Part shown: positions 1-12,580 of the stretch, one piece after another
How the letters are laid out: every line of letters begins with the position of its first letter
How positions within the stretch are numbered: the first letter of the stretch is position 1
Virus genome (UHGV): UHGV-1654074
Direction: 5' to 3' (one strand)
Length of the DNA stretch: 12,580 nucleotides
From: a virus
Notes under the pieces: generated by a model
What the model saw: only the letters and a program-made list of their open reading frames with translations
What the model was told of the DNA's origin: nothing
Databases searched by the model: none
Made by a program: the position numbers and the translations under genes

Positions 1-43
1 TCTGCGCATGTCTCGTGGGCTCGGAGATGTGTATAAGAGACAG
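1..43. other. Synthetic library adapter: Illumina Nextera read-2 transposase adapter (GTCTCGTGGGCTCGG + 19-bp Tn5 mosaic end AGATGTGTATAAGAGACAG, 10-43) preceded by an index-like 8-mer CTGCGCAT (2-9). Not biological sequence.
   Basis: Bases 10-43 read GTCTCGTGGGCTCGGAGATGTGTATAAGAGACAG, exactly the Nextera read-2 adapter as I know it. The reverse complement of the same string is at the 3' end of the window. Confidence 0.9.
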
Positions 44-72
44 AGTCAAAACGTACAGAGGAATTTAAAAAG

Positions 73-1470
73 ATGCCGGAATCCATTCGAAACATGATTA
101 CTCCGCCACGCAACAGTGCTCCACGCGTACAGGATGATGAACCTGCAGCCTCCCGGACGCCAGTGCAGGCAGCAGCACCCGTGGTGGATGAAAACAGCAT
201 CCGTGCGCAGGTACTGGCAGAGCAAAAAGCGCGTGTAAACGGTATTAATGATCTGTTTGCCATGTTTGACGGGCGTTATCAGACGCTGCAGGCTCAGTGT
301 CTTGCCGATCCTGAATGTTCGCTGGAGCAGGCCCGCGAAAAGCTGTTGAACGAGATGGGTCGCGAGTCCACGCCATCCAATAAAAATACCCTGGATCATA
401 TTTATGCCGGTAACGGTAATTTTGTGGGGGACGGGATCCGCCAGGCGCTGATGGCGCGTGCCGGATTTGAAAAAACCGAACGTGATAATGTCTACAACGG
501 GATGACCCTGCGTGAATATGCCCGTATGTCACTGACTGAACGGGGTATTGGGGTTTCCAGTTATAACCCGATGCAGATGGTCGGTGCGGCGTTCACACAC
601 AGTACGTCTGACTTCGGTAATATTCTGCTGGATGTTGCGAACAAAGCCATTCTGCAGGGCTGGGAAGATGCCCCTGAAACCTATGAACAGTGGACGCGGA
701 AAGGTCAGTTGTCTGATTTTAAAATTGCCCATCGTGTGGGTATGGGGGGCTTCAGTGCTCTGCGTCAGGTGCGTGAAGGGGCGGAATATAAATACGTCAC
801 CACCGGAGATAAACAGGCCACTATTGCACTGGCGACCTATGGCGAGCTGTTCAGTATCACCCGTCAGGCCATTATCAATGATGATCTGAATATGCTGACC
901 GATGTCCCGATGAAACTGGGCCGTGCGGCGAAATCCACTATTGCCGATCTGGTTTATGCCATTCTGACGTCTAACCCGAAAATATCCACAGATAATGTAA
1001 GTCTGTTCGATAAAGCGAAACATGCAAACGTACTGGAGAGCGCTGCAATGGACGTGGCATCGCTGGATAAAGCCCGCCAGTTGATGCGCGTACAGAAAGA
1101 GGGGGAGCGTCATCTGAATATTCGTCCTGCGTTCGTACTGGTACCGACGGCGATGGAGTCTGTTGCTAACCAGGTCATTCGCTCCTCAAGTGTCAAGGGG
1201 GCTGACATTAACGCCGGTATTATTAACCCGGTGAAAGATTTTGCGACCGTTATTGCAGAGCCTCGTCTTGATGATAACAGCCAGACCACCTTCTACCTGG
1301 CTGCGTCAAAAGGCTCCGATACGATTGAAGTGGCTTATCTCAACGGTGTGGATACGCCATATATTGATCAGATGGAGGGCTTCAGTGTGGATGGCGTGAC
1401 AACGAAAGTGCGTATTGACGCTGGTGTCGCGCCAGTTGATCACCGCGGTCTGGTGAAATGTACGGCGTAA
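73..1470 (+). CDS. Putative major capsid (head) protein, 465 aa from the ATG at 73. The frame is open upstream to the adapter junction, so the N-terminus could be truncated.
   Basis: Large ORF directly upstream of the head-completion and tail genes, i.e. in the gene E slot of lambda-like order. The N-terminal ~100 aa are charged and helical-looking (ENSIRAQVLAEQKARV..., EQAREKLLNEMGRE), as in capsid delta/scaffold-like domains. AGAGGA lies 10 nt upstream of the ATG at 73. Not recognisably lambda gpE; the fold assignment is inference. Confidence 0.55.
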   Translation: MPESIRNMITPPRNSAPRVQDDEPAASRTPVQAAAPVVDENSIRAQVLAEQKARVNGINDLFAMFDGRYQTLQAQCLADPECSLEQAREKLLNEMGRESTPSNKNTLDHIYAGNGNFVGDGIRQALMARAGFEKTERDNVYNGMTLREYARMSLTERGIGVSSYNPMQMVGAAFTHSTSDFGNILLDVANKAILQGWEDAPETYEQWTRKGQLSDFKIAHRVGMGGFSALRQVREGAEYKYVTTGDKQATIALATYGELFSITRQAIINDDLNMLTDVPMKLGRAAKSTIADLVYAILTSNPKISTDNVSLFDKAKHANVLESAAMDVASLDKARQLMRVQKEGERHLNIRPAFVLVPTAMESVANQVIRSSSVKGADINAGIINPVKDFATVIAEPRLDDNSQTTFYLAASKGSDTIEVAYLNGVDTPYIDQMEGFSVDGVTTKVRIDAGVAPVDHRGLVKCTA

Positions 1471-1493
1471 ACGTCGCAGATAACAACTCTGAT

Positions 1494-1513
1494 GGCCCGT
1501 AAGGGCTTTTTTT
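1494..1513 (+). terminator. Weak intrinsic-terminator-like element: short GC stem (GCCC/GGGC) with GTAA tetraloop followed by T7.
   Basis: ggcccgtaagggc followed by ttttttt, 24 nt after the capsid stop (1468-1470). The stem is only 4-5 bp, so strength is doubtful. Confidence 0.35.
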
Positions 1514-1524
1514 GTACCTGAAAT

Positions 1525-1543
1525 CAGCCCCTGAACGGGGCTG
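1525..1543 (+). promoter_or_regulatory. Stable hairpin (7-bp stem CAGCCCC/GGGGCTG, loop TGAAC) just upstream of the RBS of the next gene; no U-tract, so not a terminator. Possible mRNA stability or translation-modulating structure.
   Basis: Perfect 7-bp inverted repeat at 1525-1531 / 1537-1543. GGAGA (1546-1550) and the ATG at 1557 follow. Confidence 0.3.
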
Positions 1544-1556
1544 TGCGGAGACAGTT

Positions 1557-1880
1557 ATGGCAAAGAATTTTGTAGAAGAAGGAAAAACGGTGGCGATTGT
1601 TGCCAGTGCAGCCATCAGCAGCGGAGATCTGGTGCAGGTGGGGGATGTTTTTGCGGTGGCGCTGACCGATATTCCACAGGGTGAAACAGGCGACGGCCTG
1701 ACCGAAGGTGTGTTTATGCTGCCTAAGCTGAAAACGGATGACATGAAAACGGGTAAGAAGGTTTATCTGAAGTCCGGAAAAGTTCAGCTGACTAACAGCG
1801 GCTCTGATCCGCTGGTCGGGGTTGTCTGGGCAGATGCCGGAACCAGTGCAGAAGAAGTGCCGGTAAAACTCAATGTCTGA
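1557..1880 (+). CDS. Small head-associated protein, 107 aa; resembles DUF2190-type small proteins found next to capsid genes (possible decoration or head-completion role). Occupies the lambda FI slot but is not FI-like in size.
   Basis: ORF 1512-1880 in the track. I place the start at the internal ATG at 1557 (MAKNFVEEGKT...), which has GGAGA 6 nt upstream; the track start at 1512 lies in the terminator/hairpin region. Family assignment is from recalled sequence pattern (GVFMLPK..., VPVKLNV C-terminus) and is tentative. Confidence 0.45.
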   Translation: MAKNFVEEGKTVAIVASAAISSGDLVQVGDVFAVALTDIPQGETGDGLTEGVFMLPKLKTDDMKTGKKVYLKSGKVQLTNSGSDPLVGVVWADAGTSAEEVPVKLNV

Positions 1881-2148
1881 TCCCTTTTCCCGGCTGGCAG
1901 CGCGTATGGATGCGATCACGGTCAGAAAGATGGGAAAGACAGCCTCGATTAATGATGTCGATATGACTGTGATCCCGGGAGAAACACTGGCAGAGCTGAA
2001 TGCTCTGTCCGGACCTGCGGTCTCTCTGGTGGTGTTTTCTTCGGGATACCGCCCACGGCGCGGGGATCGCGTTGTTTATGACGGACAACAATGGACGGTC
2101 ACACGGCATGAACGCTTTAACGGTAAGCCAATGATCTTTATTGAGTAA
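1873..2148 (+). CDS. Head-tail joining / head-completion protein, gpFII-like by position and size (91 aa).
   Basis: Start overlaps the upstream stop (ATGTCTGA, 1873-1880), indicating translational coupling. Small protein immediately before Z. The C-terminal RRGDRVVYDGQQWTVTRHERF resembles head-tail adaptor proteins. Shorter than lambda FII (117 aa), so homology is uncertain. Confidence 0.5.
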   Translation: MSDPFSRLAARMDAITVRKMGKTASINDVDMTVIPGETLAELNALSGPAVSLVVFSSGYRPRRGDRVVYDGQQWTVTRHERFNGKPMIFIE

Positions 2149-2159
2149 AGAGGTGTGGG

Positions 2160-2738
2160 ATGAAGGGGCTTGAGAATGCCATCCGCAATCTGAACAGCCT
2201 TGATACCCGTATGGTGCCACAGGCCAGCGCATGGGCGATAAACCGTGTGGCACAGAAAGCGGTCTCGGTTGCCACCCGGCAGGTTGCCGGGAATACCGTT
2301 GCGGGAGATAACCAGGTGAAAGGGATCCCCCTGAAACTGGTACGTCAGCGTGTCCGGGTGTTTAAAGCCAGTCCGTCAGGAAAAATGACGGCCAGGATCC
2401 GCGTTAACCGGGGCAATCTGCCTGCCATTAAGCTGGGGACAGCCCGGGTCAGACTGACCCGGCGTGGTGGAAAACTGCAGTACCGTGGCAGCGTGCTGAA
2501 GGTGGGTAAATATCTTTTCCGGGATGCGTTTATTCAGCAACTGGCGAATGGTCGCTGGCATGTGATGCGGCGTATTGATGGCAAAAATCGTTACCCCATT
2601 GATGTGGTGAAAATCCCTCTGTCCGTACCGCTGACACAGGCATTTGAAGATGCCCGCGACCGCATCATTGCTGCGGAAATGCCGAAACAGCTGGGGTATG
2701 CACTGAAACAACAACTGAGGTTATGGCTGACCCGATGA
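2160..2738 (+). CDS. Z: Tail completion protein Z homologue (192 aa, the same length as lambda gpZ).
   Basis: 192-aa ORF in the lambda Z position with GAGG upstream of the ATG. Its stop overlaps the U start in an ATGA motif, as in lambda. Confidence 0.8.
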   Translation: MKGLENAIRNLNSLDTRMVPQASAWAINRVAQKAVSVATRQVAGNTVAGDNQVKGIPLKLVRQRVRVFKASPSGKMTARIRVNRGNLPAIKLGTARVRLTRRGGKLQYRGSVLKVGKYLFRDAFIQQLANGRWHVMRRIDGKNRYPIDVVKIPLSVPLTQAFEDARDRIIAAEMPKQLGYALKQQLRLWLTR

Positions 2739-3136
2739 ACCGACATACACAAATCCGCCAGGTCGTACTGGCACGCCTTCGGGAGCAGTGTGGAGACAGC
2801 GCCACGTTTTTTGACGGGCTTCCGGCATTTGTTGATGCGCAGGAACTGCCTGCCGTGGCGGTGTGGCTGAGTGATGCTCAGTACACCGGAAAAATGACGG
2901 ATGAAGATGACTGGCAGGCTGTTCTGCATATTGCTGTCTTCATCCGGGCACAGGCACCGGATTCAGAGCTGGATATGTGGATGGAGAGCACCATTTTCCC
3001 GGCCCTGAATGATGTACCGGCACTTTCCGGACTCATCGACACCCTGATCCCACTCGGTTTTAACTATCAACGTGATAATGAGATGGCCACCTGGGCGATG
3101 GCGGAAATCACGTACCAGATCACGTACACGAATTAA
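2735..3136 (+). CDS. U: Tail terminator protein U homologue (133 aa from the ATG at 2735; alternative start at 2723).
   Basis: Translation (...ATFFDGLPAFVDAQELPAVAVWLSDAQYTGK..., DSELDMWMES..., ITYQITY) matches my recollection of lambda gpU (131 aa). ATGA start/stop overlap with Z. Confidence 0.85.
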   Translation: MNRHTQIRQVVLARLREQCGDSATFFDGLPAFVDAQELPAVAVWLSDAQYTGKMTDEDDWQAVLHIAVFIRAQAPDSELDMWMESTIFPALNDVPALSGLIDTLIPLGFNYQRDNEMATWAMAEITYQITYTN

Positions 3137-3146
3137 GGAGGTGGTA

Positions 3147-3890
3147 ATGACCACACCAAATCCACTGGCAAAAACGAAAGGTGCGGGAACGACGTTCTGG
3201 ATGTACACCGGCAAGGGCGATGCGTTTGCGAACCCTTTATCGGACACTGACTGGCTGCGTCTTGCGATGGTGAAGGATCTGCAACCTGGCGAAATGACCG
3301 CTGATGCAGAAGATGACACTTATCTCGATGATGAAGATGCAGACTGGAAAACGACAACCCAGGGGCAGAAATCCGTCGGTGATACTTCGGCGACGCTGGC
3401 CTGGCGTCCGGGTGACAGCGGACAGAAAAGACTGGTTCAGTTGTTCGACTCCGGTGAAGTCTGCGCGTTTCGAATCAAATATCCCAACGGTACTGTTGAT
3501 GTTTTCCGTGGCTGGCTGAGTTCACTGGGTAAAACCATTGCCTCAAAAGACGTGATGACCCGCACAGTGAAAATCAGCGGTGTGGGGCGTCCGTATCTGG
3601 CAGAGGAGGGCACTGAAACCGTGGGCGTTACCGGGCTGACGGTGGCACCGGCATCCGCCAGTGTCAATGTGGGAGCAACCACCACGCTGACCTTTACAGT
3701 AAAACCTGACGGAGCCAGTGACAAAGCGATCAGTGTGCATTCGACAGATCCACAGACAGCCACTGTGACCCTGAACGGGCTTGTGGCCACGGTGAAAGGC
3801 GTGAAGCAGGGCAGTGTCAGCATTGTGGGCATGACTTCTGACGGCGATTTTGTGGCAGTGGCTACGGTGGCTGTCAGCGCCGCAGGTTAA
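3147..3890 (+). CDS. V: Major tail tube protein V homologue (247 aa) with a C-terminal Ig-like (Big_2-type) domain.
   Basis: AAGGAGG at 3135-3141, 5 nt before the ATG at 3147 (the track start at 3072 is upstream and unlikely). MTTPNPLAKTKGAGTTFW..., YLDDEDADW and NGTVDVFRGW motifs match my recollection of lambda gpV (246 aa). The C-terminal ~90 aa are T/V/S-rich beta-strand-like sequence typical of Ig-like domains. Confidence 0.9.
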   Translation: MTTPNPLAKTKGAGTTFWMYTGKGDAFANPLSDTDWLRLAMVKDLQPGEMTADAEDDTYLDDEDADWKTTTQGQKSVGDTSATLAWRPGDSGQKRLVQLFDSGEVCAFRIKYPNGTVDVFRGWLSSLGKTIASKDVMTRTVKISGVGRPYLAEEGTETVGVTGLTVAPASASVNVGATTTLTFTVKPDGASDKAISVHSTDPQTATVTLNGLVATVKGVKQGSVSIVGMTSDGDFVAVATVAVSAAG

Positions 3891-3910
3891 CAGGACGATA
3901 CTCATCATTT

Positions 3911-3934
3911 GCCCCGGTTATCCGGGGCTTTTTT
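3911..3934 (+). terminator. Intrinsic (rho-independent) terminator-like hairpin between V and G: 7-bp GC stem GCCCCGG/CCGGGGC, TTAT loop, then T6.
   Basis: gccccggttatccggggctttttt read directly. The V-G spacer is 57 bp, against roughly 15 bp in lambda as I recall it. Confidence 0.6.
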
Positions 3935-3950
3935 GCAGGTGGAGAACATG

Positions 3951-4337
3951 ATGTTTCTGAAACAGGGCACGTTTAATCATGAAAAACAGTCCGTGGTGCT
4001 CAGTGAGCTGTCCGGGCTGCAGAGAATTGAATATCTGGCGTTTCTTCAGCAGCGAACGGCAAAGTTTGATGCCGAAGAGGGAGAACTGCCGGAGGCTGAA
4101 CGACAGATTGCTTTTCTGCGGATGGGGATGGATATCAATGCCTGGCTGGTTTCCCGCTCACTGTGGAATGCGGATCAGTCTAAGGATGTAGAGACGCTTT
4201 GCGCATCCGTTATTACAACATGGTCGTATGATGCCCTGGGTGCGGGGGCGGAGATGGTTCTGTCGCTGAGCGGTATGGGGGCCATTGAGAATGCCGGGGA
4301 TTTGGAGCATGAGGTGCTGACGCCGGAAAAGTCCTGA
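3951..4337 (+). CDS. G: Tail assembly chaperone G homologue (128 aa from the ATG at 3951; the ATG at 3948 is also possible).
   Basis: MFLKQGTFNHEKQSVVLSELSGLQRIEYLAF... resembles lambda gpG (MFLK..., LSELSALQRIEHLA..., 140 aa). GGAG at 3941-3944 is 6 nt before 3951. Confidence 0.85.
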   Translation: MFLKQGTFNHEKQSVVLSELSGLQRIEYLAFLQQRTAKFDAEEGELPEAERQIAFLRMGMDINAWLVSRSLWNADQSKDVETLCASVITTWSYDALGAGAEMVLSLSGMGAIENAGDLEHEVLTPEKS

Positions 4338-4675
4338 CGCGGGAAATGCAGTTTGTCATGCGGCTTGCCCGGGAGTTCCGGCGGGCAGACTGGCGGCGGA
4401 TGCTGTCGGAAATGTCGGCCACTGAGCTTGGTGAGTGGGGCGATTATTTCCGGATGCAGAGCTTTAGTGATGTGTGGATGGATGCGCAGTTTGCCTCGCT
4501 GAAGGCATTGATCGTGAGAATGGTGTCCGGCAGCAGTGATGCTGCGGTGGCTGATTTCAGCCTTTTACCGGAAGAGAACGGGATACCGGAGCGAACGGAC
4601 GAAGAACTGATGCATCTTGGGGAAGGTATTTCCGGAGGTGTGCGTTATGGACCAGATAGCCAACCTGGTCATTGA
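3951..4675 (+). CDS. G-T: G-T fusion tail assembly chaperone made by programmed -1 ribosomal frameshift near the end of G (candidate slip site G GAA AAG at 4325-4331); T portion 4331-4675. Predicted fusion about 241 aa.
   Basis: The frame of ORF 4346-4675 is -1 relative to G. That frame is open from 4313 (an in-frame TGA at 4310-4312 closes it upstream), so entry must occur within 4313-4334. The only heptamer there with a shifty A-site codon is G GAA AAG. The T part has no SD of its own. Conserved G-T arrangement of lambda. Confidence 0.75.
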
Positions 4676-7600
4676 TTTGGGGATTGATGCGGCAGAGTTT
4701 AAAAATGAAATTCCCCGTATCAAAAACCTTCTGAATGGTGCAGCCAGCGATGCAGAACGGTCTTCTGCCCGTATGCAGCGTTTTATGGAGCGTCAGACTC
4801 AGGCCGCCCGGCAGACAACGCAGGCGGCTTCTTCGGCTGCAACAGCCGCATCCGTCCATGCGCAGACGGTGGAGAAGAACGCACAGGCTCATGAACGCAT
4901 GGCCCGCGAGGTGGAGAAAACCCGCCAGCGCATGGAGGCACTGAGCCAGAAAATGCGCGAGGAACAGGCGCAGGCCATGGCTCTGGCGGAGGCTCAGGAT
5001 AAAGCGGCTGCTGCGTTTTATCGTCAGATTGACAGTGTGAAACAGGCCAGTGCGGGGCTGCAGGAATTACAGCGTATTCAGCAGCAGATCCGACAGGCCA
5101 GAAACAGTGGCGGGATTGGTCAGCAGGATTATCTGGCGCTGATTTCTGAGGTTACTGCGAAAACCCGTGTTCTTACACAGGCTGAGGAAGAGGCTACCCG
5201 ACAGAAAGTGGCGTTTATCCGTCAGCTTAAAGAGCAGGCAACCCGCCTGAATCTTTCATCTTCTGAGTTGCTTCGTGCTAAGGCAGCCCAGCTGGGGGTA
5301 AGCAGTGCTGCAGAAGTGTATATCCGCAAAATGGAGCAGGCAGGAAAAGCCACGCATTCGCTGGGTCTGAAAAGTGCAGCAGCCCGCCAGGAGATAGGCG
5401 TTCTGATAGGTGAACTGGCCCGCGGCAATTTAGGGGCGCTGAGGGGATCCGGGATAACGCTGGCTAACCGTGCCGGATGGATAGACACACTGATGTCACC
5501 GAAAGGCATGATGCTTGGCGGGGTTATTGGCGGTATTGCCGCGGCCGTCTATGGTCTGGGTAAAGCCTGGTATGACGGTCAGAAGGAGGGGGAAGAATTT
5601 AACCGCCAGTTGTCGCTGACGGGGCATTATGCCGGAGTCACTGCCGGGCAGCTGTGGACGCTCAGTCGTGCTATTTCCGGGAATGGTATCACGCAACATG
5701 CTGCAGCCGGTGCGCTGGCTCAGGTGGTGGGGAGTGGTGCATTTCGTGGAAACGATATCGGTATGGTGGCGAGAGCTGCCGCACAGATGGAGCGATCGGT
5801 TGGCCAGTCGGTCAGCGATACCATAAATCAGTTTAAGCGGCTGAAGGATGATCCTGTAAATGCCGCGAAGGCTCTGGACAATGAGCTGCATTTTCTTACT
5901 GCCACTCAGCTTGAGCAGATACGCGTCCTTGGGGAGCAGGGGCGGTCCAGTGATGCTGCACGGATAGCCATGTCTGCACTGGCAGAGGAAACCGGTCGGC
6001 GTACTGCGGATATTGATAATAACCTCAATGCGCTTGGCAGTACGCTGAAGTATCTGTCTGATTTGTGGAGTCGTTTCTGGGATGCGGCCATGAATATTGG
6101 TCGTGAAGACTCGCTGGATGAACAGATTGCCGCTTTACAGGAGAAAGTGTCGCGGGCGAAAAGACTCCCCTGGACGGCATCATCTTCTCAGGTTGAATAC
6201 GATCAGCAGCGTCTTAACGATCTTCAGGAGAAAAAACGCCAGAAGGATTTGCAGGATGCAAAAGAGCAGGCAGAGCGGAATTATCAGGAGCAACAGAAAC
6301 GCCGTAATGCTGAAAATGCTGCACTGAACCGGATGAATGAAACGGAAGCAGCACGACATCAGCGTGAAATTGCGCGTATTAATGCCATGCAGTACGCCGA
6401 TCAGGCTGTCAGGGATGCGGCGATACAACGTGAAAATGAACGTTACGAGAAAGCCCTGGCATCCGGTAAGAAAAAAACACGCGAAACCCGTAATGATGAG
6501 GCCACCCGGTTATTGCTGCAGTACAGTCAGCAACAGGCACAGGTGGAAGGACAGATTGCTGCTGCCAGACAGTCAGCAGGCATTGCCACGGAAAGGATGA
6601 CAGAAGCGCATAAACAGCTTCTGGCTCTGCAGCAGCGCATCAGCGACCTGGACGGGAAAAAACTGACGGCAGATGAAAAGAGTGTGCTGGCCCGTAAAGA
6701 TGAACTGATTCAGGCACTGACGCTGCTGGATGTAAAACAGCAGGAGCTTCAGAAACAGACGGCACTCAACGAGCTGAAGAAAAAAACAATTCAGCTGACC
6801 AGTCAACTGGCTGAAGAAGAGCGCGCTCAGCGTCAGCAACATGACCTGGATATCGCCACGGTGGGTATGGGTGATCAGCAGCGACAGCGATATCAGGTAC
6901 AACTGAGTCTTCGCCAGAAATACCAGCAACAGCTGGAGCAGTTGAGGCGGGATAGTGAGCAGAAAGGGACATATAACACGGATGACTACAGAAAGGCCGA
7001 GCAGGCGCTGACGGAGAGCCTGAACCGACAACTGAATGAGAATCGCCGTTACTGGCAACAGCTTGAAGTTGTGCAGGGTAACTGGAAAAACGGAGTCCTG
7101 CGTGCATTTCAGGATTTTACCGTGGATGCAGATAATACGGCAGAAACAGCAGAACAGGTGTTCTCGTCAGCCTTCAGCAACATGGGAAATGGCCTGGCAA
7201 CTTTTGTCACTACCGGCAAACTCAATTTCAAATCTTTCACCTCTTCTGTGCTGTCAGATATGGCGAAAATCCTGGCGCAGGCAACCATGATGAAATCGAT
7301 AAAAGGGATTGGCAGTGTACTGGGATTTGATCTCAGCAGCCTTTCCCTGAATGCCAATGGGGGGATTTATCAGTCTGCTGATTTGAGTCGTTACAGTGGC
7401 ACGGTGGTTAACCGTCCGACGTTTTTTGCTTTTGCAAAAGGCGCGGGTGTGATGGGGGAAGCTGGACCTGAAGCCATTCTGCCACTGCGTCGTGGTGCTG
7501 ACGGTAAGCTGGGGGTTGTGGCGGATATTGGTGGTTCAGGTATGGCGATGTTTGCCCCGCAGTACAACATCGAGATCAATAACGATGGCACGAACGGGCA

Positions 7601-7712
7601 GATAGGTCCGGCTGCCCTGAAGGTGGTTTATGACCTTGGGAAAAAAGCGGCAGCGGACTTTATGCAACAGCAGGCCCGTGATGGTGGTCGGTTAAGTGGA
7701 GCATATCGGTAA
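4647..7712 (+). CDS. H: Tail length tape measure protein H homologue (1021 aa).
   Basis: GGAGGTG precedes the ATG at 4647 (the track start at 4617 is upstream and less likely). Very long Q/E/R/K/A-rich helical protein with an internal hydrophobic segment (MMLGGVIGGIAAAVYGLG). The C-terminal region (...FAFAKGAGVMGEAGPEAILPLRRGADGKLGV...) is as I recall for lambda gpH. Stop overlaps the M start (TAATG). Confidence 0.9.
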   Translation: MDQIANLVIDLGIDAAEFKNEIPRIKNLLNGAASDAERSSARMQRFMERQTQAARQTTQAASSAATAASVHAQTVEKNAQAHERMAREVEKTRQRMEALSQKMREEQAQAMALAEAQDKAAAAFYRQIDSVKQASAGLQELQRIQQQIRQARNSGGIGQQDYLALISEVTAKTRVLTQAEEEATRQKVAFIRQLKEQATRLNLSSSELLRAKAAQLGVSSAAEVYIRKMEQAGKATHSLGLKSAAARQEIGVLIGELARGNLGALRGSGITLANRAGWIDTLMSPKGMMLGGVIGGIAAAVYGLGKAWYDGQKEGEEFNRQLSLTGHYAGVTAGQLWTLSRAISGNGITQHAAAGALAQVVGSGAFRGNDIGMVARAAAQMERSVGQSVSDTINQFKRLKDDPVNAAKALDNELHFLTATQLEQIRVLGEQGRSSDAARIAMSALAEETGRRTADIDNNLNALGSTLKYLSDLWSRFWDAAMNIGREDSLDEQIAALQEKVSRAKRLPWTASSSQVEYDQQRLNDLQEKKRQKDLQDAKEQAERNYQEQQKRRNAENAALNRMNETEAARHQREIARINAMQYADQAVRDAAIQRENERYEKALASGKKKTRETRNDEATRLLLQYSQQQAQVEGQIAAARQSAGIATERMTEAHKQLLALQQRISDLDGKKLTADEKSVLARKDELIQALTLLDVKQQELQKQTALNELKKKTIQLTSQLAEEERAQRQQHDLDIATVGMGDQQRQRYQVQLSLRQKYQQQLEQLRRDSEQKGTYNTDDYRKAEQALTESLNRQLNENRRYWQQLEVVQGNWKNGVLRAFQDFTVDADNTAETAEQVFSSAFSNMGNGLATFVTTGKLNFKSFTSSVLSDMAKILAQATMMKSIKGIGSVLGFDLSSLSLNANGGIYQSADLSRYSGTVVNRPTFFAFAKGAGVMGEAGPEAILPLRRGADGKLGVVADIGGSGMAMFAPQYNIEINNDGTNGQIGPAALKVVYDLGKKAAADFMQQQARDGGRLSGAYR

Positions 7713-8041
7713 TGGAGACGTTTCACTGGAAAGTGCGCCCGGATATGAATGTGGTATCAGAGCCGAAAGTGGTGACAGTGAAGCTGGGCGATGGTTATGA
7801 ACAGCGTCGTGCGGCGGGACTGAATAACCAGTTGTCGACTTACAGCGTGACGATACGTGTTCGTAAATGTGAACACCCATCTTTAAAAGCCTTTCTGGAA
7901 CGGCACGGTGGCGTCCGCGCATTTCAGTGGACGCCACCTTATGACTGGAAGCCGATCAGGGTGGTTTGTCGTAAATGGTCGGCAAGCGTGGGGGCGTTGT
8001 GGGTAACCATAACGGCAGATTTTGAACAGGTCGTGGCATAG
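7712..8041 (+). CDS. M: Minor tail protein M homologue (109 aa, the same length as lambda gpM).
   Basis: 109-aa ORF coupled to the H stop. M.TF.WKV.P ... GDGY.QR ... TYSV ... WTPPY.W ... AEFEQVV pattern as in lambda gpM. Confidence 0.9.
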   Translation: METFHWKVRPDMNVVSEPKVVTVKLGDGYEQRRAAGLNNQLSTYSVTIRVRKCEHPSLKAFLERHGGVRAFQWTPPYDWKPIRVVCRKWSASVGALWVTITADFEQVVA

Positions 8042-8050
8042 GAGTCTCTG

Positions 8051-8749
8051 ATGCAGGATATTCCACAGGAAACACATCATGAGACGACACGCCTCACTCA
8101 GTCAGCCCAGGTGGTGCTCTGGGAAATCGATCTGACAGTGGTCGGTGGAGAACGTTATTTTTTCTGTAATGAGCAGAACGAAAAAGGTGAGCCGGTCACC
8201 TGGCAGGGGCGACAGTATCAGGCGTATCCCATTCAGGGGACGGGATTTGAACTGAACGGCAAGGGCAGTGCTGCCCGTCCGACACTGACGGTTTCTAACC
8301 TGCACGGCATGGTCACCGGGATGGCGGAAGACCTGCAGAGTCTGGTCGGCGGAACGGTGGTCCGGCGTAAGGTTTACGCCCGTTTTCTGGATGCGGTGAA
8401 CTTCGTCAACGGAAACAGTGACGCCGATCCGGAGCAGGAGGTGATCAGCCGCTGGCGCATCGAGCAGTGCAGCGAACTGAGCGCGGTCAGTGCCTCCTTT
8501 GTACTGTCCACGCCGACGGAAACGGATGGCGCTGTTTTTCCGGGACGTATCATGCTGGCCAACACCTGCACCTGGACCTATCGCGGTGATGAGTGCGGTT
8601 ATCACGGTCCGGCGGTCGCGGATGAATATGATCAGCCGACGTCCGATATCACGAAGGATAAATGCAGCAAATGCCTGAGCGGCTGTAAGTTTCGCAATAA
8701 CGTCGGCAACTTTGGCGGCTTCCTTTCCATTAACAAACTTTCGCAGTAA
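8051..8749 (+). CDS. L: Minor tail protein L homologue (232 aa, the same length as lambda gpL) with a C-terminal cysteine cluster.
   Basis: AGGAG 6 nt upstream. Sequence (VVLWEIDLT..GGERYFFCNEQNEKGEPVTWQGRQYQ...) closely matches my recollection of lambda gpL. Five cysteines lie in CTWTYRGDECGYHGP...DKCSKCLSGCKF. Confidence 0.9.
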   Translation: MQDIPQETHHETTRLTQSAQVVLWEIDLTVVGGERYFFCNEQNEKGEPVTWQGRQYQAYPIQGTGFELNGKGSAARPTLTVSNLHGMVTGMAEDLQSLVGGTVVRRKVYARFLDAVNFVNGNSDADPEQEVISRWRIEQCSELSAVSASFVLSTPTETDGAVFPGRIMLANTCTWTYRGDECGYHGPAVADEYDQPTSDITKDKCSKCLSGCKFRNNVGNFGGFLSINKLSQ

Positions 8750-8753
8750 ACCC

Positions 8754-9497
8754 ATGACAGAGACAGAATCAGCGATTCTGGCGCACGCCCGGCGATGTGC
8801 GCCAGCGGAGTCGTGCGGCTTCGTGGTGAGAACACCGGAGGGGGAAAGATATTTTCCCTGCGTGAATATCTCCGGTGAGCCGGAGGAGTATTTCCGGATG
8901 TCGCCGGAGGACTGGCTGCAGGCAGAAATGCAGGGTGAGATTGTGGCGCTGGTCCACAGCCACCCCGGTGGTCTGCCCTGGCTGAGTGAGGCCGACAGGC
9001 GGCTGCAGGTGCAGAGTGATTTGCCGTGGTGGCTGGTCTGCCGGGGGGCGATTCACAAGTTCCGCTGTGTGCCGCATCTCACCGGGCGGCGCTTTGAGCA
9101 CGGGGTGACAGACTGTTATACGCTGTTCCGCGATGCCTATCATCTTGCAGGTATCGATTTGCCGGATTTTTACCGACATGATGACTGGTGGAAATCAGGT
9201 CAGAATCTCTATCTGGATAATCTGGAGGCCACAGGGCTGTATCAGGTGGCGTTGTCATCAGCACAACCGGGCGATGTGCTGCTGTGCTGTTTTGGTTCAT
9301 CGGTGCCGAATCATGCCGCCATTTACTGTGGTGACAGCGAGCTGCTGCACCATATTCCTGAACAACTGAGCAAACGAGAGAGGTACACCGACAAATGGCA
9401 GCGACGCACACACTCCCTCTGGCGTCACCGGGCATGGCACGCATCTGCCTTTACGGGGATTTACAACGATTTGGCCGCCGCATCGACCTTCGTGTGA
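8754..9497 (+). CDS. K: Tail assembly protein K homologue, 247 aa from the ATG at 8754: N-terminal JAB/MPN (JAMM) metalloprotease-like domain plus C-terminal NlpC/P60-type Cys/His domain. An internal start at 8898 would give a 199-aa form.
   Basis: The JAMM motif H-x-H-x7-S-x2-D is present as HSHPGGLPWLSEAD. Candidate NlpC/P60 Cys (GVTDCYTLF) and His (NHAAIY, HH) lie downstream. The ATG at 8754 is 5 nt after the L stop; the track start at 8712 lies inside L and is unlikely. The ATG at 8898 has GGAGGA 9 nt upstream. Confidence 0.85.
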   Translation: MTETESAILAHARRCAPAESCGFVVRTPEGERYFPCVNISGEPEEYFRMSPEDWLQAEMQGEIVALVHSHPGGLPWLSEADRRLQVQSDLPWWLVCRGAIHKFRCVPHLTGRRFEHGVTDCYTLFRDAYHLAGIDLPDFYRHDDWWKSGQNLYLDNLEATGLYQVALSSAQPGDVLLCCFGSSVPNHAAIYCGDSELLHHIPEQLSKRERYTDKWQRRTHSLWRHRAWHASAFTGIYNDLAAASTFV

Positions 9498-10066
9498 AAA
9501 CGGGGGCTGAAGCCATTCGGGCGCTGGCCACACAGCTCCCGGCGTTTCGTCAGAAACTGAGCGACGGCTGGTATCAGGTACGGATTGCCGGGCAGGATGT
9601 CAGCACGTCCGGATTAACGGCGCAGTTACATGAGACTCTGCCTGATGGCGCTGTGATTCATATTGTTCCCAGAGTCGCCGGGGCCAAGTCAGGGGGTGTA
9701 TTCCAGATTGTCCTGGGAGCAGCCGCCATTGCCGGATCATTCTTTACCGCCGGAGCCACCCTTGCAGCATGGGGGGCAGCCATTGGGGCCGGTGGTATGA
9801 CCGGTATCCTGTTTTCTCTCGGTGCCAGTATGGTGCTCGGTGGTGTGGCGCAGATGCTGGCACCGAAAGCCCGGACGCCCACAGCGACCAGCACGGATAA
9901 CGGTAAGCAGAACACGTATTTCTCTTCACTGGATAACATGGTTGCCCAGGGCAATGTTCTGCCTGTTCTGTACGGTGAAATGCGCGTGGGGTCACGCGTG
10001 GTTTCTCAGGAGATCAGCACGGCAGACGAAGGGGACGGTGGTCAGGTTGTGGTGATTGGTCGCTGA
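9395..10066 (+). CDS. I: Tail assembly protein I homologue (223 aa, the same length as lambda gpI); overlaps the 3' end of K by 103 nt in a different frame.
   Basis: MAATHTLPLASPGMARICLYGDLQRFGRRIDLRVKTGAEAIRALATQLPAFRQ... matches my recollection of lambda gpI. The hydrophobic Gly/Ala-rich C-terminal half is typical. Confidence 0.85.
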   Translation: MAATHTLPLASPGMARICLYGDLQRFGRRIDLRVKTGAEAIRALATQLPAFRQKLSDGWYQVRIAGQDVSTSGLTAQLHETLPDGAVIHIVPRVAGAKSGGVFQIVLGAAAIAGSFFTAGATLAAWGAAIGAGGMTGILFSLGASMVLGGVAQMLAPKARTPTATSTDNGKQNTYFSSLDNMVAQGNVLPVLYGEMRVGSRVVSQEISTADEGDGGQVVVIGR

Positions 10067-10085
10067 TGCAAAATGTTTTATGTGA

Positions 10086-10105
10086 AACCGCCTGCGGGCG
10101 GTTTT
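10086..10105 (+). terminator. Terminator-like hairpin in the I-J spacer: stem AACCGCC/GGCGGTT, loop TGCG, followed by a T-rich tract.
   Basis: aaccgcctgcgggcggttttgtcgttt read directly; it lies 20 nt after the I stop and 22 nt before the J ATG. Confidence 0.4.
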
Positions 10106-10123
10106 GTCGTTTATGGAGCGTGA

Positions 10124-12580
<2,457 letters not shown>

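Follow-up and report, generated by a model that had tools for sequence, protein, structure and literature searches.

The window analysed here, a stretch of 12,580 nucleotides taken at its full length, is almost certainly a complete contig from a short-read assembly, with untrimmed Nextera (Tn5 tagmentation) adapter at both of its tips. The first 43 and the last 48 bases are leftover Nextera library adapter and not genome. The artefact is two-sided, with adapter closing off a contig that the window contains in its entirety. Between the tips lies a genuine insert (44-12532, + strand), identified by one-piece alignments as the head-tail module of an mEp460/Gifsy-2-type lambdoid phage or prophage of E. 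coli. The first-pass annotation, in which only the 5' end had been described, was confirmed to be correct there, and its interpretation is supported.

Adapter sequence at the two tips

The 34-nt Nextera read-2 (P7-side) adapter, GTCTCGTGGGCTCGGAGATGTGTATAAGAGACAG, a string printed in 3,533 papers in the literature, was found at window positions 10-43 on the + strand with 0 mismatches. The 34-mer had no match in any of 200 dinucleotide-preserving shuffles at up to 3 mismatches, and by our own arithmetic its chance expectation was about 25,000 positions / 4^34, or ~1e-16. From base 1, the window reads TCTGCGCAT-GTCTCGTGGGCTCGG-AGATGTGTATAAGAGACAG-AGTCAAAACG and onwards. Its first base (1, + strand) fits the P7 suffix as the last base (T) of Illumina P7 (...CGAGAT). 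Positions 2-9 (+ strand) hold the i7 index N722 in its primer orientation, CTGCGCAT; in a published primer table the N722 index primer reads ...CGAGAT-CTGCGCAT-..., with the sample-sheet form ATGCGCAG (PMC7589761). The 15-mer specific to the read-2, P7-side Nextera adapter, GTCTCGTGGGCTCGG, occupies 10-24 (+ strand; naming of the read-2 and read-1 adapters as in PMC13009126), and the 19-bp Tn5 mosaic end, AGATGTGTATAAGAGACAG, is matched exactly at 25-43 (+ strand), where it faces and directly abuts the insert. The mosaic end had 0 chance matches in 200 shuffles. The first-pass annotation had read bases 10-43 as the Nextera read-2 adapter including the mosaic end, preceded by an 8-nt index-like segment, and had proposed a search against adapter sequences as the check. 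Both readings stand: the adapter match is exact, and the index-like segment is a catalogue index.

The 3' end of the window (12533-12580) is a reverse-complemented copy of the 5' adapter sequence. Here the mosaic end lies at 12533-12551 (- strand, exact match), again facing the insert, and is followed by the read-2 adapter 15-mer at 12552-12566 (- strand), the whole 34-mer being exact at 12533-12566. The same index as at the 5' end, N722, then occupies 12567-12574 (- strand) in the form in which it appears in read-1 read-through (ATGCGCAG), and the last six bases (12575-12580, - strand) are the first six of the P7 complement (ATCTCG...). Outside the index, the remnants of P7 (CAAGCAGAAGACGGCATACGAGAT) amount to only 1 nt (T) at the 5' end and 6 nt (CGAGAT) at the 3' end, both consistent with P7. 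The two tips are 100% complementary over 43 nt and constitute an inverted terminal repeat. An offset of 5 nt keeps this repeat from being flush, and the first 20 nt of the window differ from the reverse complement of its last 20. The read-1-side form of the adapter, TCGTCGGCAGCGTC, was absent from the window, and no internal mosaic end was found in it even with 3 mismatches allowed.

The phage insert and the genes cut at its junctions

The insert is 12,489 bp long, beginning with a fragment of a capsid gene and ending with a fragment of gene J. Bases 44-12532 aligned with E. coli prophages in one piece at 100% coverage and up to 98.2% identity, and with Escherichia virus mEp460_4F5 in one piece at 100% coverage and 97.5% identity. 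The insert corresponds to positions 4884-17349 of the 44,510-bp mEp460 genome, about 28% of it, and follows the mEp460 gene order throughout: the capsid fusion fragment, head decoration, small head/tail genes and tail terminator in the 5' part; then the major tail protein, the G and T chaperones and the tape measure gene (4647-7712); and in the 3' part the M, L, K and I homologues followed by J. The insert is without sign of chimerism. At window positions ~9400-10066, near the boundary of the K and I tail-assembly genes, it is about 23 nt longer than mEp460 (NC_019716) and ETEC1720, and the BLAST alignment with mEp460 splits there in two pieces. Since mEp460_4F5 and strain MS1050 align unbroken, in one piece, the extra ~23 nt represent ordinary mosaic variation.

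Both junctions were compared with 5,426 complete E. coli genomes (28 Gb). The segment 1-1600 had matches in 2,119 of these genomes, and the 15 best matches listed were all of 100% identity and all began at query base 44. For the segment 11000-12580, matches were found in 4,607 genomes; among the matches listed, homology ends at query base 1533 (window position 12532), with one reaching 1538. At the 5' junction, ...GCATGTATTC|AGTCAAAACG in E. coli ETEC1720 stands against adapter|AGTCAAAACG in the window, and at the 3' junction ...TTCGTGGAG|GGCGTCGGTC in ETEC1720 stands against ...TTCGTGGAG|CTGTCTCTTA in the window. Beyond both junctions the ETEC1720 genome runs on into sequence unrelated to the window tips. 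The 43-mer that precedes AGTCAAAACGTACAGAGG in the window had no match in the 5,426 complete genomes. Biological sequence, placed by the first-pass annotation at about base 44, begins exactly there, and in no independent assembly is the tip contiguous with genome, which is what would have spoken against an adapter.

The 5' junction cuts a gene annotated in ETEC1720 as 'ClpP-like prohead protease/major capsid protein fusion protein' (L001, 13400-15427). Mapping to this relative places window base 44 at L001 14001, position 2 of codon 201. This codon is CAG in the genome and a hybrid GAG in the window (43-45), with the first G contributed by the adapter and the AG by genomic sequence; the first intact codon is that at 46-48 (Ser202). 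The window thus holds the 3' portion of the protease/scaffold/major capsid fusion gene, codons 202-675 and the stop, at 46-1470 (+ strand). The last stop in frame 1 before the ATG at 73 is a TAA at 34-36, within the mosaic end, and the frame stays open from 37 onwards, in agreement with the earlier claim of an open frame from 44 to that ATG. The 465-aa 'capsid' ORF as called (73-1470, + strand) starts at this ATG, which by mapping to the relative is the internal Met211 of a 675-aa protein. A Shine-Dalgarno-like motif, GAGGAA, lies at 57-62, 10 nt upstream of the ATG.

The N-terminus is, as the first-pass annotation had maintained, not readable from the window, but it can be placed with relatives that match positions 44-1600 at 100% identity. 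Counted from base 44, the start annotated by PGAP in E. coli ETEC1720 lies 601 nt upstream, and the one chosen by the depositors of phage mEp460 lies 532 nt upstream. The two annotations differ in the exact start codon, and the protease domain is lost under either of them. A Pfam search of the full-length homologue detects CLP_protease (aa 33-191) as well as Phage_capsid_4 (aa 377-672); for the window ORF it detects the capsid domain alone (Phage_capsid_4, PF25209, E about 1e-54), the called 465-aa ORF lacking 210 residues that include the entire ClpP domain. Upstream of the capsid gene, mEp460 carries the small and large terminase, head-tail adaptor and portal genes. Their absence from the window, like that of the ClpP domain, reflects the end of the contig and not biology, and the comparison with a related phage that the first-pass annotation had suggested bears out its view that the upstream genes were lost by artefact.

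A fused prohead protease, scaffold and coat gene of the Gifsy-2 type has been described (Effantin et al. 2010, as cited in PMC12315714). The window at 46-1470 holds the C-terminal 474 codons of such a fusion gene of the mEp460/cdtI-like lambdoid phages, and over 44-1600 it is 100% identical to many E. coli prophage copies. Unlike the intact gene, the window copy lacks the first 200 codons, the whole ClpP domain included. Met211 sits just past the ClpP domain (aa 33-191). Translation might conceivably also begin inside the fusion gene, in frame at the ATG at 73, and yield a scaffold-capsid protein without the protease, in the manner of lambda Nu3 within gene C, a reading that we regard as improbable. 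Conservation is uninformative on such a start because the relatives are nearly identical. If it were used, the called window ORF would match a real product by accident.

The 3' junction falls within the tail-tip host-specificity gene J, which is annotated at L001 24061-27474 and at mEp460 14944-18357. By translation, the window carries its 5' portion, codons 1-802 of 1137, at 10127-12532 (+ strand). The adapter starts exactly at the codon boundary after codon 802: the genome continues GGCGTCGG... and the window has CTGTCTC.... The J frame meets no stop through the adapter, and 16 artificial residues are added to it. E. coli genomes contain J-like sequence at a median of 3 sites each. Inside J, a 449-aa antisense ORF (11219-12568, - strand) has an ATG (12568-12566) that straddles the boundary of index and adapter, AT being the end of the index and G the start of the adapter; this ORF is spurious and owes its start to the artefact.

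Recurrence of the adapter string in other records

The 42-nt index-plus-adapter string was found in 49 IMG/VR loci (L002-L050), all from one metagenome (3300045988), in at least 120 human-gut metagenome contigs and in at least 120 MAG contigs (Collinsella, Clostridiales, Bacteroides, Ruminococcaceae, Acetobacteraceae). About 290 public contigs from unrelated taxa carry it at their tips. Copy positions were counted over the fetched loci and the window, which gave 313 copies, including the two in the window itself. No more than 24 nt, the length of P7, separates 311 of them from a locus end, and none is internal. Copies on the + strand lie at 5' ends and those on the - strand at 3' ends, with the mosaic end directed inward in every case. 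The outer tails are an exact P7 suffix in 308 of the 311 terminal copies, up to the full 24 nt; the full P7 is present in L019, L037 and L029, and two exceptions consist of the full P7 plus a short run of T. A dependence of these tails, mostly 0-11 nt in the siblings, on assembler k-mer size was considered as their cause, and a simple k-mer argument proved unconvincing.

No internal mosaic end was found in any of the sibling loci. Their opposite ends carry the read-1-side adapter in 41 cases, the read-2-side adapter in 27 (the window counted) and a bare mosaic end in 33. Such a mix of A, B and bare mosaic ends at opposite tips is the signature of read-through by both mates of short inserts in untrimmed libraries. 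Many of the sibling contigs are SPAdes NODE contigs, with listed coverages of ~1.7 to 17x. The exact string across the adapter-insert junction of the window had 0 matches in IMG/VR.

One of the IMG/VR siblings, L033 (IMGVR_UViG_3300045988_107564, 13899 nt), has a flush 645-nt inverted terminal repeat in which adapter is joined by ~600 nt of genomic sequence, a pattern suggestive of fold-back (palindromic) assembly. Another sibling, L140 (9423 nt), has a flush 48-nt inverted terminal repeat of adapter only. Both would pass a completeness test that asks for an inverted terminal repeat of >=20 bp. Metagenome 3300045988 appears to have been assembled without Nextera trimming, and the ends of its viral contigs, along with inverted-terminal-repeat and partial-gene calls made from them, are suspect.

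Nextera adapter was also found in 43 deposited phage records, the organisms or hosts of which include Escherichia, Streptococcus, Listeria, Bacillus, Acinetobacter, Salmonella, Pseudomonas and Staphylococcus. It lies at the record ends in some entries (LT9855xx/LT9960xx, 'Bacteriophage sp.') and internally in Streptococcus phage D1024 (at 33833) and Escherichia phage vB_EcoM_G10400 (at 110018). In RefSeq NC_054922.1, the 'complete genome' of the T4-like Escherichia phage vB_EcoM_KAW1E185, an internal adapter was located at 146326-146360 (L292 = 146150-146550). The site is intergenic, between the genes for RNase H and the tail fibre proximal subunit, and the block there comprises a run of ~56 T, the full P7, the index CGATCGGT and the 34-nt Nextera adapter, followed by a ~55-nt duplicate of the genomic sequence that precedes it.

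Origin of the tips and consequences for annotation

The tips would be explained by read-through of short inserts. Where an insert is shorter than the read length, read 1 would run on into the complement of the P7-side adapter, in the order mosaic end, CCGAGCCCACGAGAC, i7 index N722 and then ATCTCG.... With reads untrimmed for Nextera adapter, the assembler would extend each contig end into the adapter and would halt there, as pure-adapter k-mers are common to thousands of unrelated reads. That the contig ended at these two particular sites may be due to a coverage gap or to repeat branching. Compared with Nextera or Nextera XT read-2 adapter left in assemblies, the window is alike in the 34 nt, the mosaic end, the N722 index, the P7 bases and the terminal position; its particulars, the P7-side adapter on both ends with 1 and 6 bases of P7, differ in nothing substantial from usual Nextera read-through.

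The two ends carry the same B (P7-side) adapter with the same index, both directed inward, which is how a B-B tagmentation product would look. The window could on that account be a single real library molecule, a 12.5-kb tagmentation fragment with the P7-side adapter at both ends that was read whole by a long-read platform. A molecule of the B-B type is poorly amplified, and an insert of 12.5 kb does not form clusters on an Illumina flow cell. The siblings with the same string include many SPAdes NODE contigs (listed coverages ~1.7-17x), their other ends fall into comparable numbers of A, B and mosaic-end-only tips (41/27/33), as mixed read-through predicts, and the unequal P7 remnants (1 vs 6 nt) are a better fit to truncated read ends. 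A B-B molecule is therefore very unlikely, and the sequence would be an artefact in either case. A further possibility is that the adapter marks a chimeric join, part of the insert having been mis-assembled by adapter-mediated concatenation of unrelated fragments. Adapters can nucleate chimeras, as the internal P7-index-adapter block with its duplicated flank in the RefSeq T4-like phage illustrates. The window, lacking an internal mosaic end and unbroken from 44 to 12532 at 100% coverage against several independent genomes and mEp460_4F5, leaves such a join with a negligible probability.

A biological origin of the terminal inverted repeat, as the ends of a natural Tn5/IS50-type transposon or as genuine inverted terminal repeats of a linear phage, was weighed against the same evidence. 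The mosaic end is an engineered derivative of the natural 19-bp outside and inside ends of Tn5/IS50, and in the window, likewise, two mosaic ends in inverted orientation enclose a stretch of DNA. Searches with the natural IS50 sequences, taken as CTGACTCTTATACACAAGT for the outside end and CTGTCTCTTGATCAGATCT for the inside end, gave 0 matches in the window at up to 2 mismatches. No transposase lies between the repeats, the annotated content being all phage structural genes in mEp460 order. Unlike a natural element, the window has no target DNA outside the ends, and the flanks of its mosaic ends are Illumina-specific. With the natural ends and a transposase absent and Illumina-specific bases present, a natural Tn5/IS50 element is excluded.

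With the genuine phage repeats behind completeness calls in CheckV and IMG/VR, the window shares an inverted repeat of >20 bp at its termini: a perfect 43-nt repeat lies at or near both ends, and CheckV-style criteria take repeats of >=20 bp as a signal of completeness (PMC8116208). The repeat of the window is, in contrast, synthetic, containing Illumina-specific sequence, a catalogue index and P7. It is offset by 5 nt, bounds a fragment of about 28% of mEp460, and cuts genes mid-codon or mid-gene at both junctions where relatives continue through. The 43-mer is absent from the 5,426 E. coli genomes yet occurs at contig tips of unrelated phyla. A genuine phage repeat is excluded by the truncated genes, the 28% of a genome, the relatives without the sequence and the lack of a flush repeat, and a biological origin of either kind has next to no probability. 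Adapter left by an untrimmed-read assembly is the reading that we retain.

Such tips are a well-known artefact of untrimmed-read assembly, and the finding holds no biological novelty. Its relevance is one of quality control only: annotation should start only once bases 1-43 and the 48 bases at 12533-12580 have been removed. Left in place, the tips give rise to false annotations, namely the N-terminus of the 465-aa capsid ORF, the 16 artificial residues of J and the start of the antisense ORF. They can also yield false 'complete, ITR' calls. CheckV presumably compares flush contig ends, and the window escapes a strict flush test only via its 5-nt offset. In CheckV an inverted terminal repeat is a repeat of >=20 bp at contig ends, and only 33.2% of the contigs with such repeats were of high quality (PMC8116208). 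Nextera contamination of this kind is widespread among public contigs (metagenome, MAG and IMG/VR) and extends to deposited phage records, including the inside of one RefSeq genome.
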